Shown here piece by piece: positions 4,758 to 42,826 of a DNA stretch of 64,000 nucleotides. A model generated the notes under the pieces. It did no database searches, was not told the origin of the DNA, and worked only from the letters and a program-made list of their open reading frames with translations. Source of the stretch: Actinomycetes bacterium (GTDB lineage: Bacteria; Actinomycetota; Actinomycetes; JAWWOW01); the NCBI GenBank assembly GCA_045807285.1, contig JBJMHR010000013.1, positions 358,770-422,769 of the forward strand, in the 5' to 3' direction. How positions within the stretch are numbered: position 1 is the first letter of the stretch; the number at the start of each line of letters is the position of its first letter. Made by a program: the position numbers and the translations under genes.

Positions 4758-5671
4758 GCAACCGGCCGGAACATCGGCAACGTCAGGTCGTCGTCGACGG
4801 CCACGAACTCTGCTTGCACCGGCATCCCGACCTCTACCTCGGCGGCCTCTACTCCGATGATGTCGGCGACGAGGCGGGTGCCCTCCTGGAGCTCGATGAG
4901 GCCGACCGACAAGGGATAGTCGAACGCCGGGACCTGCGGGTAGTGGTTCACGACGAAGCTATAGACCGTGCCGCGACCACTCGCTTCCACGGTGTCCCAG
5001 TCGTACGACGTACACCTGGGACACACCGGACCTGGCGGGTGCCGCAACCGACCACAAGGCACGCACCGCTGGATGAGCAACTTGTGTTGCTTTGCACCCT
5101 CGAACCAGAACTCGCTGTCCTGTGTGACCGCCGGTCGGGGCCGCAGCGGTTTGGTTTCCATCTTCTCGGGCGGCCGGAACTTCAGGATGCGGAACGTCAT
5201 CGATGCAACGAGGTCACCACCCGCGTCGTGGTAGTCCTGCCGCGTTGTGACGAAGTGGCCGACACCGAGCCCGGTCTTCTTTTCCTCCGAGACCGACTCG
5301 ATGGACGCGGTAACGGTGACCCGGTCGCCGGGACGCAGATAACGCTCGTAGGTCTGCTCACAGTTCGTCGCAACAACGGAGCTGAAGCCAGCGTCGGTTA
5401 GCAGGCTCAGCAGCTCGTCCTGTGCGTTGCCACTTCCGGCCGGCGGCGGGTTGAGCCCGCGCATCACCCAGGCTTGCAGCATCGTGGGCGGCGCGACGAT
5501 GCCGTGGTGCACGGACTTCGCCGCGGCGGCCGGATCGGTGTAGACCGGGTTGGCGTCGCCGACCGCTTCGCACCAATGGCGGATCATCGCCTGGTTGACC
5601 TCGTCCGGTCCCGCTGTCGGCGGACCGACGACGCGCCCCTCGAACGCGCGCAGCTGATCGAGTAACGACAC
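4754..5671 (-). CDS. chsH2: MaoC-like hydratase fused to DUF35/OB-fold Zn-ribbon domain, ChsH2-like
   Basis: N-terminal MaoC-like domain, C-terminal CVPCGRLRHPPGPVCPRC Zn-ribbon plus OB fold typical of DUF35. Confidence 0.75.
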   Translation of the reverse strand: MSLLDQLRAFEGRVVGPPTAGPDEVNQAMIRHWCEAVGDANPVYTDPAAAAKSVHHGIVAPPTMLQAWVMRGLNPPPAGSGNAQDELLSLLTDAGFSSVVATNCEQTYERYLRPGDRVTVTASIESVSEEKKTGLGVGHFVTTRQDYHDAGGDLVASMTFRILKFRPPEKMETKPLRPRPAVTQDSEFWFEGAKQHKLLIQRCVPCGRLRHPPGPVCPRCTSYDWDTVEASGRGTVYSFVVNHYPQVPAFDYPLSVGLIELQEGTRLVADIIGVEAAEVEVGMPVQAEFVAVDDDLTLPMFRPVA

Positions 5672-5717
5672 GCAGCAGACCTTCCGCTCGAGGGCGGCTC
5701 ACCGTAGAAAGAAGCGT

Positions 5718-5731
5718 TTGACTCTGTCAAG
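5718..5731. promoter_or_regulatory. Palindromic operator candidate TTGACTCTGTCAAG in the divergent chsH2/VOC promoter region
   Basis: Exact 14-mer also at 10437-10450; near-identical CTTGACTAGGTCAAG at 11757-11771. Confidence 0.55.
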
Positions 5732-5806: not shown

Positions 5807-6199
5807 ATGGGAGCACCGGTCGTCCACTTCGAGATCATCGGCAAGGACTACAACGCGCTGAGCGCGTTCTATGGCCAGTTGTTCGACTGGAGGTTCGACA
5901 CGGACAATCCGAGCGGTTACGGCGTCGTGGCGCGCGAGGACAACCTCAACGCTGATGGCATCGGCATCGGCGGCGGCCTCATGGGCATGACCGGCCACCC
6001 CGAGATGGAGGGGTACGGCGGGCACGTGACGTTCTACGTCGAGGTTCCCGACATCGAGGCTGCGCTGGCGAAAGCCGAGCAGCTGGGCGGCAAGCGGATG
6101 ATGGGCCCACAGGCGGTGCCCGACGGTCCGACCATCGCGCAGTTCCTCGACCCGGAGGAACGGATGGTCGGGCTGGTGCAAGCCGGGACGATGGGCTGA
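5807..6199 (+). CDS. VOC (glyoxalase/bleomycin resistance/dioxygenase) family protein
   Basis: 130 aa, HFEIIGKDYNALSAFYGQLFDW... VOC fold signature. Confidence 0.8.
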   Translation: MGAPVVHFEIIGKDYNALSAFYGQLFDWRFDTDNPSGYGVVAREDNLNADGIGIGGGLMGMTGHPEMEGYGGHVTFYVEVPDIEAALAKAEQLGGKRMMGPQAVPDGPTIAQFLDPEERMVGLVQAGTMG

Positions 6200-6414: not shown

Positions 6415-7863
6415 TCAGCCTTCGGGTAACCGGTACGCCGCGATCTTCCCGTAGTGGTTCGCGATGACGTTGTTTCCCGCGATCGCGACGCCGCTGCCGA
6501 TGCTGGCGCTCGGTTCGATCGGCGACATCCACAACAGCTGACCGGTTGCTGCGTCGAAGGCTTTCAGGGCCGGTTCGTCGACGTAGTAAACGACGCCGTT
6601 CGCCAGCGCGACGTTGCCACCCTTCATCGGTACGCCGGTGAGCGGCGCCTGCCATTTCGTTGCGAACGTGTTCGCGTCAAAGGCGTAGAGCACACCGGGG
6701 TTGGCAGCGACGTACAGCGTCTTCCCGTCGGTTGCGATGCGCGCCAACTCGCCGCCGAGGAACGACAAGCTCACGAACAACTGCTTCTTCCACACCGGTC
6801 GCATCGTCGTGGCATCGAAGACATGCAGCCATCCGGACTTCTGCGTGGCTGCCCCGAGCAACCGCCCGGACCGGTCCCGCCACAGTGTCGGGCCGACGCC
6901 GAAGTCCACGTCGGTCTGGCCGCACGCCGGTGAACCGCCGTACACGCCACCGTTCACCCATGCCTTGTCGCCGACGTTCTGGCAGACGGGGTTGTCGTAG
7001 CCGGTCACGCTGTCGGGTGTGCCCTTGTACGTGCCGACGATCCGACCGAAGGTCGGCCGGGTGCGGTCGAGATCCATCTTGATGATGGAGTCGTCGTACT
7101 GGCTCTCCTTGGTCTTGGACTCGGGATTCGACGTACCGACGTAGAGGTACTTGGTCGTCGCGTCGACTGTGGGCGTCCCCCACACTCCGCCGCCGTGGTA
7201 ACCACGTGCGATCTCGTCAGCCGGGATCGTGGTCGACTTGTAGAGCACCTTGCCGGTGGCGGCGTCGATGATCCCGTAACCCTCCTCGGCGTTCGGATCG
7301 AAGTCCGGACCGGTGGTGAACAGCACCTGAAGCCCGTCGAAGACGATGGCGCTCGCCTGCTGAGTGGTCGAGTAGCCGAAGTAGATCTCGTCGCTCGTCC
7401 AGAGCAGATGTCCGTCACGTACGTCGAACGCCGCGGCCTTCGGATGACCGTCGTTGTTCAGGCCGACGTGCACGCTCCCCTTCGCGACGGTCACAGCGAA
7501 CGTCCCGCTGGTGTCCGCGCCTTGTGAGGTCCAGACGAGCTTGCCGGTGGTCAGGTCGAGCGCCTCGATGTGCCCACCGGTATTGATGAACACACAGCCA
7601 CCGGACACGATCGGCGGCGGTGACTGGTAGCCGGTGTCACCGGTGATCCACGCCTGTTGCAGTGACGCGACGTTCCCGGTTCCGATTGTCGTTTTGGCGG
7701 TCTGGTGCTGCGAACCGTGCAGGTCCTCGCCGTACGTCGCCCAGCTGCCGCCACTCATCTTCTCCGTGCACGGCGCGGCTGCTGCACTGCGCGCGGCCGC
7801 AGGTAGCGCGACGGCCGTCAGAGTGATCGCGACGAGCACCGCCGAGGTACGCCGAGCCCTCAC
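6415..7863 (-). CDS. Secreted PQQ-like (quinoprotein-type) eight-bladed beta-propeller repeat protein
   Basis: Signal peptide from GTG 7863 (VRARRTSAVLVAITLTAVALPAAARSAAAA); PQQ-repeat motifs (ALDLTTGKLVWTS) and YHGGGVWGTPTVDATTKYLYVGTSNP resembling the GGG-W...GTGN region of quinoprotein dehydrogenases; GTGA overlap with upstream gene. Confidence 0.75.
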   Translation of the reverse strand: MRARRTSAVLVAITLTAVALPAAARSAAAAPCTEKMSGGSWATYGEDLHGSQHQTAKTTIGTGNVASLQQAWITGDTGYQSPPPIVSGGCVFINTGGHIEALDLTTGKLVWTSQGADTSGTFAVTVAKGSVHVGLNNDGHPKAAAFDVRDGHLLWTSDEIYFGYSTTQQASAIVFDGLQVLFTTGPDFDPNAEEGYGIIDAATGKVLYKSTTIPADEIARGYHGGGVWGTPTVDATTKYLYVGTSNPESKTKESQYDDSIIKMDLDRTRPTFGRIVGTYKGTPDSVTGYDNPVCQNVGDKAWVNGGVYGGSPACGQTDVDFGVGPTLWRDRSGRLLGAATQKSGWLHVFDATTMRPVWKKQLFVSLSFLGGELARIATDGKTLYVAANPGVLYAFDANTFATKWQAPLTGVPMKGGNVALANGVVYYVDEPALKAFDAATGQLLWMSPIEPSASIGSGVAIAGNNVIANHYGKIAAYRLPEG

Positions 7864-9437
7864 CGCGACAGCCCGTTGACACCGGGCCCGCCGACGCACG
7901 CCGGATCGGTGGCTGACGTGCAGTCGTAGACGCGGAAGTTCCTGAACGACAGGTTTCCCCAGTTGGACGGATCGTCGGTGACCGGGTTCGTCGGGCCCGT
8001 GTCCATCCGGTAGCCGATGCCGTACGTGTAGGAGAAGTTCGGTTGTGACTGCACTTCGAAGTTGTACGGCGCTGGGTCCGGTAAGCAGGTGGCGCAGTCC
8101 GTGACGGTGCGCCCATTGATGCGCACGATGTAGCGCGAGCCGACTTGCACGATCTCGATCTGGCTCCAGTCCGGATATGAGTTCGACTTGATGCGCTGCG
8201 CTGGGTAACCGCTCACCGGGTTGTCGACCGCCCACCCCGTGAGCGCATCCGGCACCGTGTTGCCTTGGATGCCTCCGGTCAGGAACTCACCGGCCTCGCG
8301 CATCTGGATCTCGTGACCACCGACGTATATCGCGCCGTTGTCCTCGAACGCCTGCATCCGGTACGCGAACCGGATCAGCACGTTGTGAAGCTTGCGGGCT
8401 GTGTAGGTCATCGTGCAGCCCTGCTCACCGACGAAGCCTTCGGTTGCGAGCGGCGCGTAGTTCGTCGGCGACTTCGTGTGCACCTGTCGCACGCTGCCGT
8501 CGTCGTCCAGGGCGCAGTTGGACTCCGTCCAGCCGTCGAACGTCGTTCCGTCGAAGATGCGTTTCGTCCCGGCCGGATCGGCGGGCGCTGCATCCGGCAC
8601 CTTCGCGCCGGTGCCGTTGAAGTCGATCCAGCTGATCTCGACGGGCAACGCCGTGAGGTCGGCGGCCAGGAACAGTTCGGGGTCTCGACCGGGAACCTTG
8701 TTCACGATGGGCCACGGCTGCGTCTGCCAGCAGTTCGGCCAGCCGAAGTTGGACTTGTGTGCGTTGTTGAGGTCGTCGGCAACATCGACGGTGCCGATGA
8801 TCGACGGGGCGTCCGGCGCGCCGGCGCGGAGCTCGACACGACTCGGCGTGACGTGCGGCTTCCGTTGCGGGACGCACACGCGCAGCGATACCGAATAGAT
8901 GTGTGTGAAGTCGACCCGACCGACGTCGACTACGTCGCCGGTGGACATCTTCATGGCGCGGTCGCGGGCACCGCCGCGCGGGTCGCGCACGGCGGGCGTC
9001 ACGACTGCCGGCGTACCGGCAGCGGCCTTGCCCTGGTCGACCTCGACCCGCTCGTAGCGCATCGGAACTTCTTGCTGACCGGAGACGAGGCGGATCGTCA
9101 CAGGGTCACCGGCGTCCCAGCCGGTGGCGCGGACGGCCGCCTCCGACGGCACCGATGCGATCCCGATGCACGACCCCGGCGTCAGCGGGTCGGCCGCGGC
9201 ACGCGACTGAGTGCCAACGGCATCGCGTCGTGACCCGCCCCCAACGTGGACGGCCACCGGAGCGTGTACACAGCCTGCTCCGTCGAGCCGGTAGGCGACC
9301 CGGTCGCCAAAGTCGACGGGTCCCCACGCCAACGGAGTGGCGAAGTGCGGTACGCCGGACGCGCGCGCGATCGGAGCAACGACAGCGAGTGCGACGAGCG
9401 GCGCCACCGTGAGGCCCAAACGGGTGTAGCGATGCAT
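7860..9437 (-). CDS. Secreted protein with C-terminal DUF1080 (3-keto-disaccharide hydrolase-like, LamG jelly-roll) domain
   Basis: ATG 9437 followed by signal peptide MHRYTRLGLTVAPLVALAVVAPIARA; RIFDGTTFDGW...IEIVQVGSRYIVRINGRTV matches the DUF1080/PF06439 pattern. Confidence 0.7.
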   Translation of the reverse strand: MHRYTRLGLTVAPLVALAVVAPIARASGVPHFATPLAWGPVDFGDRVAYRLDGAGCVHAPVAVHVGGGSRRDAVGTQSRAAADPLTPGSCIGIASVPSEAAVRATGWDAGDPVTIRLVSGQQEVPMRYERVEVDQGKAAAGTPAVVTPAVRDPRGGARDRAMKMSTGDVVDVGRVDFTHIYSVSLRVCVPQRKPHVTPSRVELRAGAPDAPSIIGTVDVADDLNNAHKSNFGWPNCWQTQPWPIVNKVPGRDPELFLAADLTALPVEISWIDFNGTGAKVPDAAPADPAGTKRIFDGTTFDGWTESNCALDDDGSVRQVHTKSPTNYAPLATEGFVGEQGCTMTYTARKLHNVLIRFAYRMQAFEDNGAIYVGGHEIQMREAGEFLTGGIQGNTVPDALTGWAVDNPVSGYPAQRIKSNSYPDWSQIEIVQVGSRYIVRINGRTVTDCATCLPDPAPYNFEVQSQPNFSYTYGIGYRMDTGPTNPVTDDPSNWGNLSFRNFRVYDCTSATDPACVGGPGVNGLSR

Positions 9438-9541
9438 GACGGTCCCGTGCCTTTCAGGCTGACGCGAATGAGAGCTGGGATCTCTGAGCCCCGCGGACGG
9501 GTATTCGCGCTCGCCGGCCGCTGCACCTGCCGGCCGGGCCT

Positions 9542-10411
9542 CTACTCGTCCAGCTTGAAGACGCGCATGGCGTTCTCGCGCAGGAACTTCGGCCAGACAT
9601 GGTCGCGGAACGAAACGTTCGGCAATTCGTCGAAGATCCGCTCGAGCGAAAGCCCCATCGGGTAGTAGCCGGCGTACATCACCTTGTCGGCACCACGCGT
9701 GTTCGCGTAGTCGACAACTGCCTTCGGGTAGTACTTGGGTGCGAACGCGCTGGTCATGTAGTAGAGCCCGGGCCACTTCAGCATGAGCTTCACGGCGAGC
9801 TCTTCCCACGGCTCCGCACCGTGTCGCATCACGATCCGCAGCTCGGGGAAGTCGTAACAGACCTGGTCGAAGTGCATGACGTCCTGGCACGCGGACGGCA
9901 ACCGCGGTCCGGCGATCCCGGCGTTCACAACGATGGGGATGTCGAGGTCGATACAAGCCTGGTAGATCGGGTAGTAACGCCGGTCGCTCACCGGCACTTG
10001 CGGGTTGCAGCCGGCCGGGAACGTCGTGACGGCCTTGATGTTGTGTTCGTCGTGCGCCGCACGGATGGCACGCACGGTGTCGGTGATGCGGTTCGGGTCG
10101 ACCTCAACCGCGGCAAAGAAGCGGTCCGGATGCTGCTTCACCGCCGTTGCGGCGATGCCGGGACCGAGGCCGACCATGCCCTTCGCAACACCGTATTTGG
10201 CCATCTCGCCGAGCGTGACGGCGATCGAGTCCTGTTCCTCGTCGAGCCGGTTCGGCACGTCCTTGAACATGTACTCGGCCGGAAACTCCATCTCCGCCGA
10301 CTCCTTGTCGTGCAGCTGAGGCTTCATGAAGTCGTAATGGCGACGCGCGTTCGCGCTCGGGAAGCCGATCATCAAGTCGACGACGCCGATGCCGGCCGGG
10401 TATCCGCTCAC
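9542..10411 (-). CDS. Amidohydrolase-2 family protein (TIM-barrel metal-dependent hydrolase, PF04909-like)
   Basis: 289 aa with amidohydrolase-2 features; no signal peptide. Confidence 0.8.
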   Translation of the reverse strand: MSGYPAGIGVVDLMIGFPSANARRHYDFMKPQLHDKESAEMEFPAEYMFKDVPNRLDEEQDSIAVTLGEMAKYGVAKGMVGLGPGIAATAVKQHPDRFFAAVEVDPNRITDTVRAIRAAHDEHNIKAVTTFPAGCNPQVPVSDRRYYPIYQACIDLDIPIVVNAGIAGPRLPSACQDVMHFDQVCYDFPELRIVMRHGAEPWEELAVKLMLKWPGLYYMTSAFAPKYYPKAVVDYANTRGADKVMYAGYYPMGLSLERIFDELPNVSFRDHVWPKFLRENAMRVFKLDE

Positions 10412-10436
10412 GGCGGGTCACCCTGTCGCGGGTTGC

Positions 10437-10450
10437 TTGACTCTGTCAAG
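10437..10450. promoter_or_regulatory. Palindromic operator candidate TTGACTCTGTCAAG in the divergent amidohydrolase/aquaporin promoter region
   Basis: Exact copy of the 14-mer at 5718-5731. Confidence 0.55.
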
Positions 10451-10524
10451 GTTACTTGTCGGCGCTCCGGCTTTGGGGCCACAGTGACGGCGACGGAAAG
10501 AACGGTCCTCAGCAAGGAGGGCAC

Positions 10525-11262
10525 GTGGACGTTCGTAAACTCGTCGCCGAAGCGCTCGGCACCATGCTGTTGGTCATCTTCGCCGTAGGGACGGCCACTG
10601 AGGCGTTCGGCTTCAAGCTCGCGGGTGACGTGTCATCGGGCGTCGTGATGACGGCGTTCGCGTTCGGGCTGGTGCTGTTGGCGCTCGCTTACACGTTGGG
10701 TCCGATCTCGGGCTGCCACGTGAATCCGGCGGTGACCGCGGGCTTCCTCGCCTCGGGCCGGCTGACGTTGCCCGAGGCGATCGGTTACTGGATTGCGCAG
10801 TTCGCCGGGGGCATCGCCGGGGCGCTCGTGCTGTTCGGGATCTTCAGCGGGACTCCGTCGTACAACCGCAAGACGACGGGGCTCGGTGCGGACGGCTGGG
10901 GCAGCCATTCGATCCTCGGCGTGAACGGCGGTGGCGCGTTCGCCGCTGAGGTCGTGCTGACGTTCCTGTTCGTGCTCGTCGTGCTCGCCGTCACAACGCG
11001 TTTCGCGTCACCTGGTTTTGCCGGGTTGGCGATCGGTTTGGCGCTGACCGTCGTTCACCTCGTCGGCATTCCGCTGACCGGTACGTCGGTGAACCCGGCA
11101 CGCAGCCTGGGTCCGGCGCTGATCGTCGGCGGTGACGCACTCAACCAAGTGTGGCTGTTCATCGTTGCGCCCCTCGTCGGCGGCGTTCTCGCTGCATTGC
11201 TGTACCGCTACCTGTTCCGCATCGCCAACGAAGTCGCCGCTGCGGAGGATCTGCAGCCTTAG
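10525..11262 (+). CDS. aqpZ: MIP family channel (aquaporin Z / glycerol facilitator-like)
   Basis: Two NPA motifs (HVNPAVT, VNPARSLGPA), six TM helices; AAGGAGG before GTG 10525 (ORF track start 10456 is probably too far upstream). Confidence 0.85.
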   Translation: MDVRKLVAEALGTMLLVIFAVGTATEAFGFKLAGDVSSGVVMTAFAFGLVLLALAYTLGPISGCHVNPAVTAGFLASGRLTLPEAIGYWIAQFAGGIAGALVLFGIFSGTPSYNRKTTGLGADGWGSHSILGVNGGGAFAAEVVLTFLFVLVVLAVTTRFASPGFAGLAIGLALTVVHLVGIPLTGTSVNPARSLGPALIVGGDALNQVWLFIVAPLVGGVLAALLYRYLFRIANEVAAAEDLQP

Positions 11263-11735
11263 CTCGACGCAGCCTCGACGGCGGGATAGTTGCTCTCGCG
11301 AAGGTCTTCGACGAAGCGACCCATCAGCTTCGCGAAGTCCTGTCGGTCCTTCTCCGACCACTGCGCCAGGACGCCGACCATGTGACCGTGCAGCACGGAT
11401 GCCAGCCGTTGATGCACGCGAAGCCCGGGGGGCGTCACCACGACCAAGTTGACGCGCCCATCCTCCGAGCTCGCGTACCGGCGTACCAGCCCATCTCGTT
11501 CGAGCTGGCCGACCTGGCGTGCTGTCGCACCTGCGTCCATGTGTGCACGCCGTGCGAGCTCACCCATCGGCAACGGTCCGTCCTGACTGATACAACGAAG
11601 GAGGACGTACGCGGGCTGGGACATCACCACGCCGGCGGTTTCTGCCTGGTTGGCATAGACCCGCCGGCTTGCGCTCATGCGGAGCAGTTGTTCGAGGTGT
11701 CGCTGTATCTGCGTCACGCTTTCGGCCTGCGCCAC
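11259..11735 (-). CDS. MarR family transcriptional regulator
   Basis: MarR winged-helix signature (MSQPAYVLLRCISQDGPLPMGELARRAHMDAGATARQVGQLERDGLV). Confidence 0.85.
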   Translation of the reverse strand: MAQAESVTQIQRHLEQLLRMSASRRVYANQAETAGVVMSQPAYVLLRCISQDGPLPMGELARRAHMDAGATARQVGQLERDGLVRRYASSEDGRVNLVVVTPPGLRVHQRLASVLHGHMVGVLAQWSEKDRQDFAKLMGRFVEDLRESNYPAVEAASS

Positions 11736-11756
11736 GCGGGGCAGGTTATCGCTTTA

Positions 11757-11771
11757 CTTGACTAGGTCAAG
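11757..11771. promoter_or_regulatory. Palindromic operator candidate CTTGACTAGGTCAAG immediately upstream of the marR start
   Basis: Same TTGAC-N3-GTCAA architecture as the sites at 5718 and 10437. Confidence 0.5.
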
Positions 11772-11779
11772 GACAGCCG

Positions 11780-12412
11780 TTAACGCGGGTCGACGCGGTC
11801 GATATTCCAGTGCCGTACGACGATGCCCAGGTAGTCGCCGTCCTCGAGCGGCTGCATCGCGAAGCGCGTGATCGTTCGCTGGCCACCCTCGTGGTCCCCG
11901 TACAGCAGGTAGACCGTCAACGTCTCGCCTGACTCGATCGCCTTGCGTGCCGCGAGAAACTCCGGATCGGTCGGGTCCCGCAGCGCGCCCTGCCAGAACC
12001 CAATGTCCCCCGCAGGGACGTAGATGTCCCGCGTGAGCCGATGGAACTCGCCGAGCTCGGGGTGCGGGACTTCACCCATCACGCGTTCGGGCACGAGGAC
12101 CCAGCCGTGCAGCACGGCGATGCCGGCGCCGACGTTCCGCAAGGACATCGTGAGGTAGATCGCCTCGTCGGTGGCCTCGGCAGCACCGCGCGAACCATTG
12201 AGCTTGACCCAGTGGTTGTCCTGGAAGCCCACCTTCACGGGCGGATCGTCGAGCCGCGACGGCATCAAGACGGGCCGGATGCCCGCCAGCAGCGATCGCT
12301 CAGCGCTCCGGGCGGCGCGGTTGCCAGAACGCACCGAGGCAAACGTCGCGACGGCGAGCACGAGCGTGCCACCGGCTGTGGCCAGTGACGAGATCGTCGC
12401 CCAGTCCGCCAC
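11780..12412 (-). CDS. Hypothetical membrane-anchored protein (N-terminal TM helix)
   Basis: ORF with N-terminal hydrophobic helix ISSLATAGGTLVLAVATFASV; no family recognised. Confidence 0.5.
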   Translation of the reverse strand: MADWATISSLATAGGTLVLAVATFASVRSGNRAARSAERSLLAGIRPVLMPSRLDDPPVKVGFQDNHWVKLNGSRGAAEATDEAIYLTMSLRNVGAGIAVLHGWVLVPERVMGEVPHPELGEFHRLTRDIYVPAGDIGFWQGALRDPTDPEFLAARKAIESGETLTVYLLYGDHEGGQRTITRFAMQPLEDGDYLGIVVRHWNIDRVDPR

Positions 12413-12478
12413 CGCTCCTCCTCGACTGTCAGAACGTCAGACGGCTCTAGCCGTCCGAGCGTCTGGCAACTCGGCAGG

Positions 12479-13609
12479 CTAGGACTTGGCAGTCTCGCGG
12501 AAGCGGGTGGTCCGGTGGACGGGATCCGTGTCGATCTTCGGGATCACGTGCTCACCGAGCAACCGGATCGTCTCGAGCGTGTCTTCAATCGGCGCGGGAC
12601 CGATACCGAAGACGAGCTGGTCCATGCCAGTGTCCGCCCAGCGCTGACACTGCTTGAGCGCGTCGTCCGGGTCGCCGATGACGAGGCCGCCGTACTGCGC
12701 GCCGAGCTCGGCCATCTCCGGTGTCGGGTCGGCGAGCACTTCCGGCCACGCCGGGATGTGCTGCGGCCGCGGGAACGTGTCGTGGTAGCGGTACACGTTC
12801 GACACCAGGTAGTTCGGCTTGCAGTTGACGTAGGAGTCGATCGCCTTTTGCTTGTCCTCGGCGACGTAGGCCGCGATGCAGCTCATGATGTTGTCGTTGA
12901 CGAACGCACCGACCGGCTCAGCGTTCGCGATGCCGTCCTTGTACGACTTCCGCAGCTTCTCGACCTTGTCGAGACTGTCGAGGGAGAAACCGAGCACACC
13001 CAGACCCATGCGGCCGGCCATCTCGTACGACGCCGGGTTGCCGGCGGCGTACCACATCGCGGCGTGACCGGGGCCGTACGGACGGGGCAGGATCTTGCGC
13101 GGCGGCAGTGACCAGTACTTGCCTTCGTAACCCTCGTAGGTCTCCTGCGTGAACATCTTGGGGAACTCGTAGATGACGTCTTCCCAGATCTCTTTCGTCA
13201 TGTTGGTGTCGGTGATGCCGGCGTGGTGCAGGAAACCGAGGATCTCGTGCGAGCCCGCACCGCGGCCGGTGCCGAACTCGAACCGACCGTGCGTGAGCTG
13301 GTCGAGATAGTTGACGCGCTCGGCAACCTTCGCCGGGTGATTCACCTGCGGCAGCGGGTTGAAGATGCCGGAGCCGACGTGGATGCGCTCGGTCTTCGCA
13401 GCGAGGTAACCCGCGACGACGTCGTTCGCCGACAGGTGGGAGTACTCGTCGAGGAAGTGGTGCTCGGTCAGCCACACGTACTTGAAGCCGGCCTTGTCGG
13501 CGGCGATGACCGCCTCGATGTCTTCGAAGATCGCGTGATGCTCGGCGTCCGGGTCGGTCTCCCGGCGGGAGTTCGGGACGAAGTTCTGGATGAAAAGGCC
13601 GAACTCCAT
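12479..13609 (-). CDS. LLM class flavin-dependent oxidoreductase (luciferase-like monooxygenase)
   Basis: MEFGLFIQNFVPNS... LLM signature; AGGAGG 6 nt upstream of ATG 13609. Confidence 0.9.
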   Translation of the reverse strand: MEFGLFIQNFVPNSRRETDPDAEHHAIFEDIEAVIAADKAGFKYVWLTEHHFLDEYSHLSANDVVAGYLAAKTERIHVGSGIFNPLPQVNHPAKVAERVNYLDQLTHGRFEFGTGRGAGSHEILGFLHHAGITDTNMTKEIWEDVIYEFPKMFTQETYEGYEGKYWSLPPRKILPRPYGPGHAAMWYAAGNPASYEMAGRMGLGVLGFSLDSLDKVEKLRKSYKDGIANAEPVGAFVNDNIMSCIAAYVAEDKQKAIDSYVNCKPNYLVSNVYRYHDTFPRPQHIPAWPEVLADPTPEMAELGAQYGGLVIGDPDDALKQCQRWADTGMDQLVFGIGPAPIEDTLETIRLLGEHVIPKIDTDPVHRTTRFRETAKS

Positions 13610-13622
13610 GGCTTGCCTCCTG

Positions 13623-13636
13623 TTGCAAATATGCAA
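13623..13636. promoter_or_regulatory. Inverted repeat TTGCAAATATGCAA in the divergent LLM/IclR intergenic region (operator candidate)
   Basis: 5-bp arms TTGCA/TGCAA separated by 4 nt, between divergent starts at 13609 and 13684. Confidence 0.35.
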
Positions 13637-13683
13637 CTGCTCGGTGCAGAATCGGAACGAACGGTAGCCCGAGGGGAGCGGAT

Positions 13684-14577
13684 GTGTCCAGGGAGTCGCC
13701 CCCCACCCGTCGCACGGTAGCCCTGCTCGACGCGGTTGTACGCCGCCCCGGGCACGACCACTCGCTCGCCGAGCTGGCGAAGGAAACCGGCATCAGCAAG
13801 GCCACCGCGCTCGGCATCCTGAACGAACTACAGCAATCCGGCTGGCTCACCCGAGACCCGGGGAACAAGACGTATCGCCCCGGTGCAGCCATGCTCGCCG
13901 CGGGCACGGCCGCTGACGAGGGGTTCGTCGCGGTTCATGCCACCAGGCCGCTGATGACGGCGCTGACGAAGGAGATCGGCGCGGTCTGCACGGCGTCGGC
14001 TGTCATCGACGGCCAGGTCACTGTGCTTGCCCGCACCGAGCCGGATGGGCGCGGCACTCCGGCGTTCCGCGTGGGCCAGCGTTACCCCTTCGCGCCGCCG
14101 TCCGGCGTGATGTTCGTCGCGTGGGACGACAACAAGACGGTCGAGGCCTGGCTGAACGAACCGCCGCTCGCGCCGCTGACGGTCAACAAGACCGAGCTGC
14201 GCGCGGTGGTGGCGTCTTGCCGGGAGCGTGGGCATCTCGTCGTCGGCCTCGGTGAGTCCGACGCCGGGTTGTGGTCACTGCTGTCGGAACTGCCAGACGA
14301 CGCGGTGTCCGCGCAGCTCGGCGTACTTCTGCAGCGACGCATGCCGGGGGGCATGCAGCCCTACGTGGTCGACAACATCGACGCGCGGAAGCGGTACGAC
14401 GTGAGTCTCGTCTGCGCGCCGGTCTTCGACCGCAACGCTGAGATGGCATATCTGCTCACGGTTGTCCTGATGCAAGCCGGCGTGCTTGGTCGCGACCTTC
14501 GCAACGTCACCAGCGCACTGGACCGTACCGCCGGTGAAGCGACGGCAACCCTCAACGGCCGCGACCCGTGGTCATGA
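13684..14577 (+). CDS. IclR family transcriptional regulator
   Basis: N-terminal HTH (LAELAKETGISKATALGILNELQQSGWL) plus C-terminal IclR effector domain. Confidence 0.85.
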   Translation: MSRESPPTRRTVALLDAVVRRPGHDHSLAELAKETGISKATALGILNELQQSGWLTRDPGNKTYRPGAAMLAAGTAADEGFVAVHATRPLMTALTKEIGAVCTASAVIDGQVTVLARTEPDGRGTPAFRVGQRYPFAPPSGVMFVAWDDNKTVEAWLNEPPLAPLTVNKTELRAVVASCRERGHLVVGLGESDAGLWSLLSELPDDAVSAQLGVLLQRRMPGGMQPYVVDNIDARKRYDVSLVCAPVFDRNAEMAYLLTVVLMQAGVLGRDLRNVTSALDRTAGEATATLNGRDPWS

Positions 14578-14602
14578 CCGCGCGGACATGGTGCGGCTGT
14601 CG

Positions 14603-15643
14603 CTAGCCACCCATGACGAGCGCGACCTTGCCCCCGACTGCTTCGTCGGCCACCTGATAGGCACTCGCCGCGTCATCGAGGGCGTATTGGTGCGTCACCG
14701 TCACCTCGGGGTGCAGATCCCACTGCACCAGGTTCGCGGCCAGCTCCTCCATCCGTCCGATGCTCGTCACCCACGAGCCGAAGACCGTGAGCTGAGAATG
14801 GATCAGTGCAGGGCTGACGTCGATCTCCATTCGCCCGCCCTCCCCCACGAGCACGCATCGCCCCCAGCGGCGCGTTGCCGCAAGTGCGGTTGACCGCGCC
14901 GCCCCCGAACCGGAGGCGTCAAGGCTCACGCTGCAACCGTGACCGCCCGTCAGCTCGCGGATGACGTCGACGGCATCCGCAGTTGCGATGACGCCGTGGT
15001 CGATCGCCCCGACATCTTTCGCAAGGGTCAGTCGGTCGGCCACGACATCCACGCCGATCCGCGGCCCGGCACCCATTCGCCCACCGAGCAGCCCCGCAGC
15101 AAGACCGACCGGACCCATGCCGGTGATGAGCAGGCTGTCGCGACCGGAGACGTCTGCCTTGCAGAGCGCTTCGTACGCCGTACCGAATCCGCACGCCACG
15201 CAGGCGCCGTCGATGAACGTCAATGAGTCGGGCAACGGGACGCAGGTTGACTCTTCGGCCAGCAGGTAGTCCGCGTGGCCACCGTCGCGCTGCCAGCCAT
15301 ACGCCGCACGCAACGGTGACGTGCAGCTGATCATGTATCCCGAGCGACAATCGGGACAGACTCCGCAGCCGGCAATGTGGTAAAGGATCACGCGATCACC
15401 GACAGCGAAACGGCGACAACCAGGGCCTACCTCGACAATGACACCGCAGGGCTCATGACCGGCAATGACATTGCGGTACGCCTCCGCTCCGCTGCCGAGA
15501 TGCTCTCGGTAGATGGCGCGAATATCGCTTCCGCAGATCGTCGATGCCTTCATCTGTACGACGACTTGCCCGTGGCCTGGCTGCGGGTCCGGTACCTCGC
15601 GGTAGGCCACCTCACGGTTCCCGGGCAGATAAACACCGCGCAT
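14603..15643 (-). CDS. Zinc-dependent alcohol/polyol dehydrogenase (MDR family)
   Basis: GHEPCG, second structural Zn site CGVCPDC, Rossmann GMGPVGLAA; start ATG abuts galK stop (TGAATG). Confidence 0.9.
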
Positions 15644-16807
15644 TCAGAGATCCAATCGTTTCGCGCCATCGGACGTATGTGCGACGAACAATGTGGGTTC
15701 GGCGAACTCGGCGCGACGAAATGCCGCGCGCACTCCGTCGGACACGTCGTCGATGTCTGCGGTCGCGACGAGCGCGACGGCGCAGCCGCCGAAGCCACCA
15801 CCGGTCATCCGAGCTCCGTACGCGCCGCATTCGAGCGCGGTACTGACGGCGAGGTCGAGCTCGGGTATGGAGACCTCGAAGTCGTCGCGCAACGAGGCAT
15901 GCGATGCGCTCAGCAGGGGCCCAACACCGATGGTGTCGTCGTTGCTCAAGGCCTCGGCGGCTTGCAGCACCCGTGCGTTCTCAGTCACGACGTGCCGAAC
16001 ACGTCGCGCCAAAACAGGCTCGAGCCCGTCCGCTTGGTCAGCGGTGGCGTCGCGCAAGGCCGTGACACCGAGCTGAGCAGCCGCACGTTCGCACTCGCTG
16101 CGTCGGGTCGCGTAGCCACCGCCGGCGTTGGTGTGCTTGACGTTGGTATCGACAACGAGCAGTGCCACGTCGGCCGCGCTGAGATCGAACGGCAGCTGCC
16201 GGCTCGTGAGTGATCTGCAGTCCAGGAACAACGCGTGTCCGGCGCGGCCCAGCAACGCGATCGTCTGATCCATCACCCCAACAGGAGCTCCGACGATCGA
16301 CTGCTCAGCGCTTTGCGCGACTAACGCAAGTTCCTTCGGGTCCAGCCGGGCATCGGCCAGCTCACACAAGGCCAGACCGACGGCACACTCGAGCGCAGCA
16401 CTCGATGACAACCCACCGCCGACGGGCACATCGGAGTCAATGGCGACGTCGAATCCGCCGACGTCAACACCCCGCTCGCGCAGCGCCCACGCCACACCCG
16501 CCGCGTAGCCGAGCCAGTCGTGGGGCGGGCTGTCTGCCAACTCGTCGAGCACGACGGACTTGGCCGACCCACATTGCTCGGACCAGCCACGAACAACGCC
16601 GTCCCGCCGTCGCGCGACCGCAGCCATCGTCGACCTGTCGATCGCTACGGGCAGCACAAAGCCGCCGTTGTAGTCCGTGTGGTCGCCGATCAGGTTGACC
16701 CGGCCGGGCGCGCGCCAGACGCCCTCGGGGTCGCTGCCGAACGCAGTCCGAAAGCGCTGTGCAACCCGACCCGGGCGTGCGCTGTCAGCTGCCGACGACG
16801 TGCCCAT
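15644..16807 (-). CDS. galK: Galactokinase (GHMP kinase)
   Basis: APGRVNLIGDHTDYNGGFVLP and PVGGGLSSSAA GHMP motifs; start approximate (ORF track 16894). Confidence 0.9.
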   Translation of the reverse strand: MGTSSAADSARPGRVAQRFRTAFGSDPEGVWRAPGRVNLIGDHTDYNGGFVLPVAIDRSTMAAVARRRDGVVRGWSEQCGSAKSVVLDELADSPPHDWLGYAAGVAWALRERGVDVGGFDVAIDSDVPVGGGLSSSAALECAVGLALCELADARLDPKELALVAQSAEQSIVGAPVGVMDQTIALLGRAGHALFLDCRSLTSRQLPFDLSAADVALLVVDTNVKHTNAGGGYATRRSECERAAAQLGVTALRDATADQADGLEPVLARRVRHVVTENARVLQAAEALSNDDTIGVGPLLSASHASLRDDFEVSIPELDLAVSTALECGAYGARMTGGGFGGCAVALVATADIDDVSDGVRAAFRRAEFAEPTLFVAHTSDGAKRLDL

Positions 16808-17789
16808 CGGCCTCATCCAGGGCGCGCCGCAGCGCGGCCGCTGTTGCCTCGGGGACGGTGTCGTTGATGAACGCGCCCGCGGCAAGCTCGGCACCCGCGA
16901 GGTACTTCAGCTTGTCGGCCGTGCGGTACGGCGGGGTGAACTCGACGTGGAGGTGACTGACCGCGAGCCACTCCCCGTCATCAGTGGGCGACTGGTGCAT
17001 CGCCATCACGTAGGGCATCGAGAACGCAAACAAGCCGTCGTAGGCCCGCGCCACGTTGAGCAGCACTTCAGCGAACGAGCGGCGTTCCGGGTCGCTCAGA
17101 TCAAGCAGGCTGGCGGCATGTCGCAGCGACGTGACGTGCACCTCATAGGGGAAGCGCGCAGCGAAGGGGACGAAGGCCAGGAAGTCCTCATTGCTCGAAA
17201 CCACGCGCACACCATCGGACTGCTCGTGGGCAACAACGTCGCAGTACACACAGGTTCCGTGTTCGGCGAGGTGCGCGGCCGCGACGTCAAGCTCCCGCCG
17301 CGGACGCGGCGGTACGTCAGGAAAGCCGTAGATCTGACCATGCGGATGATCGATCGTGACACCGATGACTGCGCCCTTGTTCTCGAAGATGAACACGTAA
17401 CCGATGTCGTGCCGGGCCCCGAGGACGGCGTACCTGTCAGCCCACACGTCGATCAGCCGACGCACCCGCTCGATGTCGAGATCGGTGAAGGTCGCGTTGT
17501 GCTGATCGCTATAGAGCACGACCTCTGCTGCGCCGACCGCGGGCAGGACGTCGTACAAGTCGGAGGGTTGCACCGTCGGCTCGGGTGGCTGCGCCGACAA
17601 CGACGGGAACTGGTTGTCGAACACCACGATCTGGTACGCCGGTTCCGGGACCTCGGTGGTTGTCGTCGCACCGACGGGCGTCGGGCACAGCGGGCAGGCC
17701 TCGGCCGGAGGCAGGAACGTCCGGTCCTGCCGATGTGTGGCAAAGGTGCGCCACTCGCCGGTGACCGGGTCCCACCGTCGCTCGGTCAT
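16785..17789 (-). CDS. galT: Galactose-1-phosphate uridylyltransferase
   Basis: CPLCP zinc site and HPHGQIY HIT-like active site; ATGA overlap with GH2 stop. Confidence 0.9.
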   Translation of the reverse strand: MTERRWDPVTGEWRTFATHRQDRTFLPPAEACPLCPTPVGATTTTEVPEPAYQIVVFDNQFPSLSAQPPEPTVQPSDLYDVLPAVGAAEVVLYSDQHNATFTDLDIERVRRLIDVWADRYAVLGARHDIGYVFIFENKGAVIGVTIDHPHGQIYGFPDVPPRPRRELDVAAAHLAEHGTCVYCDVVAHEQSDGVRVVSSNEDFLAFVPFAARFPYEVHVTSLRHAASLLDLSDPERRSFAEVLLNVARAYDGLFAFSMPYVMAMHQSPTDDGEWLAVSHLHVEFTPPYRTADKLKYLAGAELAAGAFINDTVPEATAAALRRALDEADGHVVGS

Positions 17790-20587
17790 GACGGCTCGGG
17801 GTAGGCGTAGTAGGTCAGCGACCGACCATCCGGCTTCACGGTCTCGAGCCGTGCCGTTGGCTCACGCGGATGCGCTGCCCAACGAAGGATGTCCGCGAGC
17901 AACGCCCGTGCTGCGGTGTCCCCTTCGAGCACGCGACGTGCCAGCCGGTATTGACAACAGATCAGCCGCCCGGCGCCAACGTGGTGACAACCGACGATCC
18001 ATCCGGTGATGGAGCCGGGTACCGGCTTGTACGCGATGACGACGGGCTCGTGCGGGAAACCGCCACCCGCGATGCGAACGACGGCACTGTGCGCCTGGAT
18101 CGTGGACTCTTCTGCTACCAGCACGTTGCGTCTCGGCAATGACGGCAGCGCACCCGAGTCGGTCGTGAAATGGAACACCGACGATCCCCACGCGGTCTCG
18201 ACATTCGCGAGCTCGGTCGGGACCGGATAGTGCGCAGCCTTGGCCGGATCCTGCGCGAGGACGACGACGGTCTCACCTGCGTCGAGTCGCAGGCGGGCCT
18301 CGGTTCCGGCGGCGACGTCAAGGGCACCCTCGGCGACGACCAGCGGACCAGTCGCACCACAACGGGCGCCCACTGCCTGCAGGACCGCATCGCCGTCGCC
18401 GCGCGACTGCACATCGTACGGCGCGGCGGTGCGCGTGACGATGTGAATCGGGTAGCGGTTCTCCGAGATGACCTGCGCACCGGACGACAGGATCAGCAGC
18501 AGATCGTGGTTGCCGGCGACACGCGGTGCCAGCACGGTCACGTCGCCCACGACGACGCTGCGATCGGCCTCGATCGAACCGACGCGGACCGCGACCTCAC
18601 ACTCACCGAAACGCGCCTCGATCCTCGCGGGTGACAAGGCGGTGGCGTCGAAGGCAGCAACGCGATCGAGGTTCGCCGCCATCGTGCCGCCGAAACGGAT
18701 GTGCACCTGTACGTCGCTAAGCGCGGGACCATCGTTAGCGATATGCAGAGGCGCGCGCAGGTACTCCCCCGCATAGACCACAAGGCTGTCGAGGTGCAGC
18801 ATCGGGAGGGTCGGTTGGTTCGCGCGGCGGATCTCCTCGACCGCTGGCGGCTTCGGCTGACGATGCAGATCAAGCAAGCCGTTCAGCTCATGCGGCACGT
18901 CGGTCAGCTCGGTGACGCAGTAGCCACCGACGTGGTCGTGGCGCCGGAACACCTCGATCTGCAGTCGGTCGGACAAGCCCTGGTAGCGCTGCGTTTCCCG
19001 CACGAACCGGCCGATGCTGGCGGGCCAGAGCGTCGCGGCAAGCCCGGCGGCGTAGATCTCGCGCGGATCCCAGAACGGCGCGGCCGGTGTCTCCGGCATC
19101 GTCGGCAGACCCCAGTCGCCGAACTCGGTGACGTAGAGCGGTCGCTGCGCGTCAGCCCACTGCCGGCATGCGGCGTCGAGCTTGTCGAGGTACTCCGAAT
19201 GCAAGCGGCCGTACCAGTGCGCGGTGAGGATCGGTGAACAGAACACGCGGTCGGGATGGGGCTCGACCCAGTCGTTCTCGATGACAGGCCGCGTCGGATC
19301 CATCGACGAGACCGCGGCGTACATCGTGCGCGCGAACTGCTCGTAGACCGGCGACTCGCGTACGCCCGCCCGGTCGAGGCCGAGCTCGTTCATCGCCGAC
19401 CACAGAATGATCGACGGATGGTTGCGATCGCGGCGGACTTGCTCGGTGATTGCTTCGATCGCGCATTCGCTGAGTGGTGTGCCGTCGCCGAGCTCGTCGT
19501 GCGCGATCGGTTCGGCTATCGGGAGGTCGCTGTGCACCAACATTCCGAGCTCGTCGCACACGCGTAGGTAGGTCGGGTCGAAAGCCTTGATGTGCAGCCG
19601 CACGGTGTTGAAGCCCATGGCCTTGGCGGCTTTGACCTCGTCGATGATCTGCTCGCGGCTGCCCTCGGCATACAGCTGTTCGGCGCGGAAGCCCTGCACC
19701 AGCACACTCTTCATGCGGTACGGCACGTCGTTGATCAACATGCGCGTCCCGTCCAAGCGGATGGTGCGCAGCCCGTAACGAATCTGCCGCCGGTCGCTCA
19801 ACGCGACGTCGGTCTTGACCTCGACGAGCAGCTGATGGAGCGCAGGTTGCTCGGGTGACCAGCGCGGCGCGGGAGTGCTGCCGAACTGCGACGTGACCGT
19901 CGTGGACTCGCCAGGACCGAGTCGTACGACGTGCTCCTGCACCCGGTCGAGCGTGCGCAGCCCGAGCAAGCCCCAGGTCTCCTCGGCCGCGACGTTCTCG
20001 ACCTCAACCCGGACCTGCAGGTCGTCCGGATCGCTGTTGACGAACACGTCCGAGAGCACCAACGGCCCGTGCCGCCGAAGGCTCACCGGCTGCCAGATGC
20101 CGCCGTAGGTCAGATAAAGGCTCGGTCGGCTCGGGAAGACATGGTTCGCCCAACCTTGTTTCCCGTGCGCCATCCGCACGTGTTGCGGATCCTCGAGTGG
20201 CGGGTCGGTGACCCTTACATCGAGCACGTTCACGCCGGCACACAACGCATGCGTGACCGGGAGCTCGAACGGCGTGAAGGGCTGCGCGTGCGAGCCGATG
20301 TGTTCGGCGTTGAGGAACACGTCGGCAAGATCCATGACGGCGCCGAAACGCAACGTCCAGTGGCCGTCGACGTACGGGAGATGGAAGCGGCGGCGGTACC
20401 AAGCGGTGCCGTCGAGCTCGAGGTAACCCTGCGCCTCCCACAAGCCGGGGACCTCGATGGCAGCGGGCGTCAGTTGGTCGAGCTCGCTGCGATCGTGATC
20501 GCCCGGGAAGAACTCCCATATTCCGTCGAGCGAGCCGCGATCGCGCGCATCGAGATCCAGGACGCTCGGCGCGAGCGCCGTCGTCAC
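17786..20587 (-). CDS. Glycoside hydrolase family 2 protein (beta-galactosidase/beta-mannosidase/possible galactofuranosidase class), about 933 aa
   Basis: GH2 sugar-binding N-domain and TIM barrel with NHPSIILWSAMNE (acid/base) and YVTEFGDWG (nucleophile) motifs; GTG 20587 overlaps upstream TGA. Confidence 0.8.
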   Translation of the reverse strand: MTTALAPSVLDLDARDRGSLDGIWEFFPGDHDRSELDQLTPAAIEVPGLWEAQGYLELDGTAWYRRRFHLPYVDGHWTLRFGAVMDLADVFLNAEHIGSHAQPFTPFELPVTHALCAGVNVLDVRVTDPPLEDPQHVRMAHGKQGWANHVFPSRPSLYLTYGGIWQPVSLRRHGPLVLSDVFVNSDPDDLQVRVEVENVAAEETWGLLGLRTLDRVQEHVVRLGPGESTTVTSQFGSTPAPRWSPEQPALHQLLVEVKTDVALSDRRQIRYGLRTIRLDGTRMLINDVPYRMKSVLVQGFRAEQLYAEGSREQIIDEVKAAKAMGFNTVRLHIKAFDPTYLRVCDELGMLVHSDLPIAEPIAHDELGDGTPLSECAIEAITEQVRRDRNHPSIILWSAMNELGLDRAGVRESPVYEQFARTMYAAVSSMDPTRPVIENDWVEPHPDRVFCSPILTAHWYGRLHSEYLDKLDAACRQWADAQRPLYVTEFGDWGLPTMPETPAAPFWDPREIYAAGLAATLWPASIGRFVRETQRYQGLSDRLQIEVFRRHDHVGGYCVTELTDVPHELNGLLDLHRQPKPPAVEEIRRANQPTLPMLHLDSLVVYAGEYLRAPLHIANDGPALSDVQVHIRFGGTMAANLDRVAAFDATALSPARIEARFGECEVAVRVGSIEADRSVVVGDVTVLAPRVAGNHDLLLILSSGAQVISENRYPIHIVTRTAAPYDVQSRGDGDAVLQAVGARCGATGPLVVAEGALDVAAGTEARLRLDAGETVVVLAQDPAKAAHYPVPTELANVETAWGSSVFHFTTDSGALPSLPRRNVLVAEESTIQAHSAVVRIAGGGFPHEPVVIAYKPVPGSITGWIVGCHHVGAGRLICCQYRLARRVLEGDTAARALLADILRWAAHPREPTARLETVKPDGRSLTYYAYPEPS

Positions 20588-22570: not shown

Positions 22571-22574
<4 letters not shown>
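21621..22574 (-). CDS. Five-bladed beta-propeller glycoside hydrolase-like protein (GH43/GH130-like fold)
   Basis: MVKDPCPVFDGSLWHLFGT and IYDPHP...WPYLVYSG blades typical of GH43/GH32/GH130 propellers; family assignment tentative. Confidence 0.55.
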
Positions 22575-25071
<2,497 letters not shown>

Positions 25072-42818: not shown

Positions 42819-42826
42819 CGCGGCGG

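Follow-up and report, generated by a model that had tools for sequence, protein, structure and literature searches.

A conserved secreted pair of a quinoprotein-type beta-propeller and a DUF1080-like protein in Actinomycetota, with a putative oxidise-then-cleave role on glycosides

The DNA analysed here, hereafter the window, is a high-GC stretch (65-70%) of 64,000 nucleotides from an Actinomycetes bacterium (contig JBJMHR010000013.1, positions 358,770 to 422,769). On its reverse strand lie three consecutive genes (Table 1), encoding an amidohydrolase-2 family protein, a DUF1080-like protein and a beta-propeller of the pyrroloquinoline quinone (PQQ) repeat type. The last two form a real, conserved module of an extracytoplasmic dehydrogenase and a DUF1080 protein. 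We put at roughly 55% the probability that they act as a two-enzyme system outside the cytoplasm, in which PQQ-type oxidation of a glycoside would be followed by cleavage through the DUF1080 protein.

The original prediction for this locus, made from the DNA letters, had described the open reading frames (ORFs) with their coordinates, a GTGA overlap between the genes of the pair, signal-peptide-type N-termini on both products and several propeller motifs, and all of these are as described. The 4-nt overlap recurs in the gene calls of two related loci (L001 and L002; loci fetched for comparison are numbered in this way) and is consistent with translational coupling. In both N-termini a basic n-region is followed by a hydrophobic stretch and by an Ala-rich motif of cleavage type, which by motif reading gives MHRYTRLGLTVAPLVALAVVAPIARA followed by SG and MRARRTSAVLVAITLTAVALPAAARS followed by AAAAPC. 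In the AlphaFold2 (AF2) models these predicted signal-peptide stretches are low-confidence N-terminal helices. The spacer that separates the pair from the amidohydrolase gene contains a GC-rich inverted repeat at 9513-9537 that lacks a T-run, and a ribosome-binding-type motif, GAAAGG, 12 nt 5' of the DUF1080-like ATG. A search of this spacer for a terminator-like or promoter-like consensus found none.

The propeller is recognised by hidden Markov models (HMMs) of PF13360 (PQQ_2, E = 8e-23) and PF01011 (PQQ, E = 4e-15). Its AF2 model (pLDDT 89, pTM 0.88) is an eight-bladed beta-propeller, with the blades counted from the DSSP string. The top 23 Foldseek matches to this model are structures of PQQ alcohol and methanol dehydrogenases (ADH and MDH; E = 2e-22 to 6e-18). 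The PQQ ADH 1kb0 is the best of them (E = 2e-22, TMq 0.69), PedH, XoxF and MDH are also among them, and BamB (TMq ~0.55) and tetrathionate hydrolase rank lower. Similarly, a family profile built from 58 relatives (44-83% identity) retrieves quinohemoprotein ADH first from the PDB (E = 1e-21). Searched as a single sequence, the propeller matches only BamB in the PDB (E = 4e-6), and the Pfam model that fits it best, PQQ_2, is the one named for BamB. These two results, along with the absence of pqq genes from the window, are what favours a cofactor-free scaffold similar to BamB or Rv3212, set beside the DUF1080 protein for its assembly or anchoring. We regard such a scaffold as very improbable. 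The BamB-like identity was rejected because both the profile and the fold searches rank PQQ dehydrogenases first. At 482 residues, with PQQ-ADH-type loops, the propeller also differs from BamB-like propellers of ~370-390 residues, and its active-site-type residues are invariant. The homology to polyvinyl-alcohol dehydrogenase (PVADH), the relatives with fused cupredoxins that have complete type-1 copper ligands, and the sister loci in which an oxidoreductase takes the propeller's place, all described below, likewise count against a scaffold. By profile and predicted fold, the propeller is a PVADH-like dehydrogenase of the quinoprotein type, not a BamB-like scaffold. It is assigned to a distant lineage, outside the methanol/ethanol equivalog group, and the JGI label of its family is 'polyvinyl alcohol dehydrogenase (cytochrome)'.

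The candidate active site was located by comparison with five annotated PQQ enzymes encoded on plasmids. Numbering was checked on Paracoccus MxaF, in which GGGTNW, GSGN, WDYA and DRNG hold W243, N261, D303 and R331. Profile-profile alignment of the propeller family with these enzymes (hhalign, probability 99.9, E = 2e-30) places three residues unambiguously: D187 at the metal Glu (GGEF), W228 at the PQQ-stacking Trp and N246 at the metal Asn. The Trp-to-Asn spacing of 18 is that of all the references (MxaF, XoxF and the quinohemoprotein ADH). Two further assignments follow the strand register of the model. K342 (QKSG) closes strand B of blade 6, at the DRNG/PKNG location, and D318 lies 8 residues ahead of strand A of this blade, like the catalytic Asp of the references. 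The two are 24 residues apart, as against 27-28 in the references, whose intervening hairpin is 3 residues longer. The loop that holds the candidate catalytic Asp has grown to 45 residues and contains invariant C294 and C314; C32 and C90 are the other conserved Cys residues of the protein. The hhalign placement within loop 281-325 contradicts the strand register of the model, and hhalign was retained solely for the unambiguous positions. D187, W228, N246, D284, Y289, Q316, D318, D320 and K342 are each found in 58/58 relatives, and the YHGGGVWG and LYVGTSNP motifs are likewise invariant. In place of the BamB-like propeller devoid of PQQ residues that the original prediction had named as its counter-case, the family thus holds PQQ-type residues at invariant positions.

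As found by tblastn against plasmids, the closest characterised relative lies on the megaplasmid of Sphingopyxis sp. 113P3 (27% identity over 80% coverage, E = 4e-13). The match is a 671-residue propeller with an N-terminal CAACH heme site. Its gene follows one for a 357-residue GxSxG hydrolase and precedes a cytochrome c gene. The hydrolase is oxidised-PVA hydrolase (OPH; PDB 3wla, E = 3.5e-189), which identifies the Sphingopyxis propeller as pvaA, the PVADH encoded in the pva operon; this PVADH is PQQ-dependent (PMC12909831). Aligned with the window family (hhalign probability 99.8, E = 2e-29), PVADH shares YVGTSN, TPD, a long Cys-containing loop and an identical QKSG, with the Asp of 'PDFSIG' at D318. 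The window propeller has no heme c motif (CxxCH), unlike PVADH. A homologue with a D-Y-D motif and QKSG (hhalign E = 8e-41) is encoded on a Streptomyces camelliae plasmid (L030, 4893-6461, forward strand). It has no adjacent DUF1080 gene, and because its host is a cultured organism it is a possible tractable representative of the clade.

The PVADH-OPH couple resembles the window pair, as read here, in that a secondary alcohol is oxidised before cleavage and the cleaving enzyme is encoded immediately upstream, and in the pva operon the gene ends overlap too. The pair might accordingly act on a secondary alcohol other than a glycoside, for instance a polyol or 1,3-diol polymer or another hydroxylated polymer, with the DUF1080-like protein cleaving or binding the oxidised product; PVADH is, after all, the closest characterised homologue, and its name is the JGI family label. 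We consider this quite unlikely. PVADH shares just 27% identity, and its heme domain is missing from the window propeller, cupredoxin taking that place in the relatives. Where PVADH is paired with a serine hydrolase of the OPH type, the partner here is a DUF1080 protein that has a CBM6-like module. Furthermore, the sister loci employ a GMC enzyme of sugar-dehydrogenase type in the propeller's stead, and the ThuA fusions and GSDH-CBM6-DUF1080 proteins described below indicate carbohydrates.

Domain fusions among the propeller relatives point to a redox role. Seven relatives, of 590-621 residues or fragments thereof, end in a C-terminal cupredoxin with a complete set of copper ligands, an upstream His (xHDV) and C-x2-H-x2-M in an amicyanin-type loop. 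The only sensible reading of a type-1 copper domain fused to the propeller is that the propeller is an oxidoreductase. By analogy, electrons in these fusions would move from a quinone cofactor to type-1 copper. Quinoproteins that pass electrons to cupredoxins are known from the methylamine dehydrogenase-amicyanin and ADH IIB-azurin couples; here the cupredoxin differs in forming one polypeptide with a PQQ-type propeller. The window propeller itself carries no cupredoxin domain. Two other relatives have an N- or C-terminal ThuA domain (PF06283, E = 1e-37 to 4e-39), and the genes around these ThuA fusions encode sulfatase, BNR and NPCBM-type secreted proteins.

The original prediction that the second protein carries a DUF1080 domain is borne out. 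Residues 291-451 match PF06439 (DUF1080, '3-keto-disaccharide hydrolase') with 39.7 bits (E = 7e-10), above the curated cut-off of 26.8, and 60/60 relatives match as well (best E = 3.5e-15). In the AF2 model (pLDDT 91.6), this region belongs to a jelly roll of the 3-keto-glycoside lyase/hydratase type, for which Foldseek returns 8tda (E = 2.7e-7), 9fbe (E = 3.5e-7), 3osd (E = 7e-7) and 8v31 (E = 5e-6). Solved DUF1080 enzymes matched by the model include BT2157, AL2 and 8rr2/9fbe. Preceding the jelly roll are a family-specific beta domain and a divergent CBM6-like module. The N-terminal 260 residues match Pfam CBM_6 stretches of large secreted proteins, from which we take the N-terminus to be a carbohydrate-binding-type module; the idea of a second, degenerate DUF1080 domain there was rejected (hhalign probability <2%). 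The same exhaustive profile search, over 1.84 billion proteins, yielded only 30 cluster representatives at E <= 1e-30, and the architecture is therefore rare. Among the proteins that resemble its parts, P0306 joins a PQQ-type GSDH, CBM6, DUF1080, GH43_C2 and PKD in one polypeptide, P0271 consists of ThuA, GSDH and CBM6, and P0260 of GSDH, PKD and CBM6. The combination of a quinoprotein sugar dehydrogenase with DUF1080 or ThuA therefore recurs on an unrelated PQQ fold.

For the DUF1080 enzyme BT2, the conserved channel residues are E103, N134, E164, Q166, Y190, K245, Q273 and H275 (bioRxiv 10.1101/2024.03.25.586180). We compared motifs by aligning the DUF1080-like protein with three canonical DUF1080 proteins and counting alignment columns over 60 relatives. 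The Asn of NSG is kept as N367 (60/60) and E-x-Q as E376 (58/60) and Q378 (60/60). The NGK position is occupied by Arg (R443), and the acid of F-x-L-x-x-E (motif R-F-E/D-Y-R) is E/D in 45/60. N367, Q378, R380, E384, W424 and N441 are invariant in the family, R380 and E384 being specific to it. Catalytic competence is thus plausible, with the reservations raised below by two altered motifs.

The pairing of the two genes was surveyed by scanning all fetched loci with HMMs for the DUF1080-like protein, propeller, cupredoxin, ThuA, GMC oxidoreductase and small subunit. A DUF1080-like gene adjoins a propeller gene in 14 distinct loci (the window, L001/L002, L004, L006, L007, L008, L009, L017, L018 and L031-L035), far beyond chance. 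The arrangement varies from co-directional to divergent (L004) and propeller-first (L017 and L018, in which a propeller-cupredoxin gene lies upstream). L001, a 79%-identical relative, and L002 hold in addition a paralogous PVADH-like propeller of 523 residues that is absent from the window (L001, 6735-8306, reverse strand). It is divergent from the DUF1080-like gene and shares the motifs of the family (GAGNP, CGQLDLDFG and QKSG). In L003, a gene for a short, 369-residue PQQ-like propeller (13489-14598, reverse strand) adjoins the DUF1080-like gene and a propeller-cupredoxin gene lies 5 kb off, with a multicopper oxidase (11284-13008, reverse strand) encoded in between. L003 is a copper-rich form of the locus.

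Nine further loci (L010-L016, L037 and L038) present a different partner. Directly upstream of the DUF1080-like gene, on the same strand, they encode a PF13618 small subunit and a GMC oxidoreductase, and the HMM scan finds no propeller within 10 kb. Their hosts belong to a Thermoleophilia subclade (Solirubrobacterales, Conexibacteraceae, Paraconexibacter, Baekduia and Thermoleophilaceae). The PF13618 proteins ('gluconate 2-dehydrogenase subunit 3') bear a twin-arginine translocation (Tat) motif, TRRxxLRDG, and the closest solved relatives of the GMC proteins are FAD-glucose dehydrogenase (6a2u_B, E = 6e-53) and fructose dehydrogenase. The DUF1080-like proteins of these loci align end to end with the others, N-terminal module included. 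Long stop-free extensions upstream of the gene in L010-L016 contain no extra domains and were dismissed as high-GC artefacts over the GMC gene. In a neighbour-joining tree the proteins of the GMC loci form a derived subclade, with those of L003, L017 and L018, all linked to a propeller, as basal relatives. Every locus with informative flanks therefore has the DUF1080-like gene beside either a propeller (14) or a GMC enzyme with its small subunit (9), which means that the orthologous protein always stands next to an exported dehydrogenase. This partner swap strongly supports the propeller as the oxidising step and is the strongest evidence we have for it. The original proposal that a quinoprotein-type propeller replaces the usual GMC or GFO partner thus gains comparative support from the candidate active-site positions, the PVADH homology, the fusions and the nine swap loci.

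The DUF1080-like protein could instead be a non-catalytic, lectin-type partner that targets or presents the substrate to a true PVADH-like quinoprotein, with oxidation of extracellular sugars or of the ends of polysaccharides, for example at C1, and no elimination. We see this as unlikely. The DUF1080 domain is highly divergent, with the LQxH His now Gln-Pro and Ala at residue 358, and a CBM6-like module is present; P0260 demonstrates that a PQQ-type GSDH can be fused solely to CBM6, and the solved structures closest to the GMC partner belong to glucose and fructose dehydrogenases, neither of them a proven 3-dehydrogenase. Set against this, N367, E376, Q378, R380, E384, R443 and Q465 are invariant or nearly so across proteins of 36-80% identity, and polar conservation of this kind fits an active or metal site better than a loose lectin. 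The catalytic family's NSG Asn and E-x-Q are retained, and a strict one-to-one pairing with a dehydrogenase is the habit of catalytic DUF1080 proteins.

The oxidise-then-cleave scheme that we favour would run as follows. The exported propeller would bind PQQ and a metal ion and oxidise a glycoside at a secondary alcohol, most likely the C3 hydroxyl, a position suggested by the DUF1080 and ThuA links. Its electrons would pass to a blue-copper or other acceptor, which many relatives have as a fused amicyanin-like domain and for which the window has no gene beside the pair. The CBM6-like module of the DUF1080-like protein would hold the glycan, and its DUF1080-like domain would process the keto-sugar so that the glycosidic bond is broken by elimination, in a lyase/hydratase type of chemistry. 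The PQQ cofactor, the 3-position, the lyase/hydratase chemistry and the natural substrate are all elements that we infer.

Several observations weigh against this scheme. For the propeller, scores against NCBIfam models fall far under the cut-offs (TIGR03075, 70 bits against 480), and the candidate catalytic Asp sits in the remodelled 45-residue loop, where the profile alignment is ambiguous. By hand alignment, the vicinal Cys-Cys present in 5/5 reference enzymes is absent from the propeller family, which has A116-D117 there, and the position of MDH Arg109 is Phe; we note that the vicinal disulfide is not universal among PQQ enzymes. A Pfam survey of ~55 ORFs of the 64-kb window found no pqq, cytochrome c or cupredoxin gene. 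For the DUF1080-like protein, the likeness to solved members is modest (TM ~0.47-0.53, 12-16% identity), and a PDB sequence search gave no match longer than 33 residues. The LQxH His is replaced by Gln-Pro (Q465-P466) in 58/60 relatives, and both the window protein and P0121, its nearest relative, have Ala at residue 358 (the 8366 region of the window). With these two changes, lyase/hydratase activity may be altered or lost. A358 itself may be a sublineage-specific change at a metal or catalytic position. At the level of the locus, neither a sugar transporter nor a downstream gene of sugar catabolism shows consistent linkage to the pair. Members of the GMC partner family differ in the sugar position that they oxidise, and C3 is therefore not established. 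The functions given here for both families are predictions from sequences and models.

In its general plan the pair resembles known oxidative-eliminative loci, namely Bacteroides BT2156-2160, Alistipes AL1-4 and the glucoside 3-dehydrogenase clusters of Caulobacter and Agrobacterium, the common feature being an extracytoplasmic dehydrogenase, expected to yield a keto-glycoside, that stands beside a DUF1080 protein. The sister loci of the pair come closer still, in that they use a classical GMC enzyme with a small subunit. The differences are considerable. The oxidiser in the known loci is a Gfo/Idh/MocA (NAD) or GMC (FAD) enzyme, whereas the window has an eight-bladed PQQ-type propeller, and no sugar-phosphate-isomerase-type lyase is linked to the window pair. 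The window DUF1080-like protein is twice as long as those of the known loci, owing its distinctness also to the CBM6-like module and to the Gln-Pro that replaces the LQxH His. The pair occurs in Actinomycetota, the known loci in Bacteroidota or Proteobacteria. P0306, P0271 and P0260 realise the same theme in one polypeptide, and their CBM6 stretches are homologous to the N-terminus of the window DUF1080-like protein; they differ in their six-bladed GSDH (PF07995), an unrelated fold, in being fused domains and not two genes, and in being uncharacterised. Literature searches for PQQ enzymes linked to 3-ketoglycosides, DUF1080 or cupredoxin fusions returned nothing relevant.

Relative to the methanol/ethanol PQQ dehydrogenases (including XoxF, ExaF and PedH), the propeller has the eight-bladed fold (Foldseek E = 1e-19 to 1e-22) and the Trp, Asn, acidic and Arg/Lys positions in common. 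It departs from them in lacking Cys-Cys, in having Asp for the metal Glu, in a 30-residue disulfide loop inserted before the candidate catalytic Asp and in an overall identity of 15-17%. Its D-x-D at that Asp resembles the lanthanide signature of XoxF, ExaF and PedH. D318-V-D320 is invariant, and strand register and spacing align it with the D-F-D of XoxF, although hhalign places the loop differently. The residue at +2 is Ser in PVADH (D-F-S) and Asp in the window family and its Streptomyces homologue (D-Y-D, in 'PDYDFG'). The motif is a possible lead toward lanthanide dependence. A far bolder proposal, with a lanthanide and PQQ bound through D-x-D and Asp/Asn ligands, a fused or separate amicyanin-like blue-copper acceptor that replaces a cytochrome and a CBM6-anchored DUF1080 lyase, would define a new class of extracellular quinoprotein glycoside dehydrogenase in actinobacteria; we hold it to be improbable, and it is offered here as speculation.

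Neither the amidohydrolase nor the palindrome belongs to the module. The original prediction had placed the amidohydrolase ahead of the pair and noted that its family includes sugar lactonases. In L001 its gene overlaps marR, and a SnoaL gene and the oppositely oriented paralogous propeller stand between it and the pair; in L006 it is found 9 kb downstream, and in the other loci it is absent. The amidohydrolase is accordingly a syntenic neighbour and not a conserved member. The lactonase assignment is unsupported, the best PDB relative being the uncharacterised BB4693. The MarR-type palindrome ascribed to the operon is real, with three window matches to CTTGAC-N3-GTCAAG against 0.09 expected, but it belongs to the neighbouring promoters and not to the pair (Table 1). 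In L001, the copies, at 4989-5001 and 12946-12958, occur only upstream of marR and of an SDR/ChsH2 pair, with none upstream of the DUF1080-like gene. The palindrome is plausibly a MarR operator of the surrounding genes, and a small putative MarR regulon would flank the pair on both sides. In the window, transcription from the amidohydrolase promoter could read through into the pair, but this arrangement is not conserved. The MIP/aquaporin and marR genes are convergent, with stops that overlap by 4 nt; in the syntenic L001 the MIP gene is absent and marR directly overlaps the amidohydrolase start.

Table 1. Positions in the window of the gene pair, its parts and the adjoining features
Feature	Position (nt)	Strand	Remarks
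Amidohydrolase_2 gene	10411..9542	-	289 aa; PF04909, E = 4e-25; signal peptide absent
Spacer, amidohydrolase to DUF1080-like gene	9438..9541	-	104 nt
DUF1080-like gene	9437..7860	-	525 aa; PF06439 match
Predicted signal peptide of DUF1080-like protein	9437-9357	-	residues ~1-27; N-terminal sequence
Family-specific beta domain and divergent CBM6-like module	9356-8583	-	residues ~28-285
DUF1080 / 3-keto-glycoside lyase-hydratase-type jelly roll	8582-7863	-	residues ~286-525
GTGA overlap	7860..7863	-	TGA stop 7862-7860 (DUF1080-like), GTG start 7863-7861 (propeller)
Propeller gene	7863..6415	-	482 aa; GTG start; PF13360 and PF01011 matches
Predicted signal peptide of propeller	7863 to ~7774	-	~26-30 residues
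Palindrome CTTGACTCTGTCAAG	10436..10450	.	divergent amidohydrolase/MIP promoter region
Palindrome copy	11757-11771		upstream of marR
Palindrome copy, one mismatch	5717-5731		upstream of glyoxalase / ChsH2-like genes
MIP channel gene	10456-11262	+	flanking gene
MarR regulator gene	11735-11259	-	flanking gene
Glyoxalase gene	5807-6199	+	flanking gene

Elsewhere in the window, a galactose-type cluster (14603-23881, reverse strand) comprises a Zn-dependent ADH, a galactokinase, a galactose-1-phosphate uridylyltransferase, a 1026-residue GH2 protein, an aldo-keto reductase, an ORF that matches no Pfam model and a GT1-type glycosyltransferase. It is absent from the otherwise syntenic L001 and is therefore an insertion relative to the L001 genome. 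A transfer-messenger RNA (tmRNA) gene (37963-38325, reverse strand; tag ADNNALAIAA, Rfam 145 bits) lies ~4 kb from smpB (42342-42851, reverse strand), with an Amidohydro_2/HTH_67/MFS group and an alpha/beta hydrolase in between. The remaining observations concern three large and unusual ORFs: a 1070-residue protein with a YNCE-like beta-propeller and a family-5 solute-binding domain (49293-52505, reverse strand), a 598-residue ORF without a Pfam match (35607-37403, forward strand) and a 665-residue protein with a weak BNR_2 match only (57252-59249, reverse strand).

Glycoside cleavage through a 3-keto intermediate has recently been established as a widespread alternative to the classical glycosidases. 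To our knowledge, every version described so far relies on an NAD (Gfo/Idh/MocA) or FAD (GMC) dehydrogenase. If our reading of the pair is true, a PQQ-type enzyme of the PVADH lineage would add a third cofactor class to keto-glycoside cleavage, and the chemistry would shift to the cell exterior and to glycans bound by a CBM, in soil Actinomycetota. The swap between the propeller and the GMC enzyme with its small subunit offers a ready-made experimental control, and the invariant D-x-D raises a testable tie to lanthanide biochemistry. Were the lanthanide proposal true as well, it would amount to rare-earth-dependent, copper-coupled, non-hydrolytic polysaccharide cleavage in these soil bacteria. 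For the protein families, the pair would provide the first functional context for the uncharacterised PVADH-like clade with its cupredoxin and ThuA fusions, and likewise a context for the recurrent, unexplained co-occurrence of DUF1080 with quinoprotein domains.

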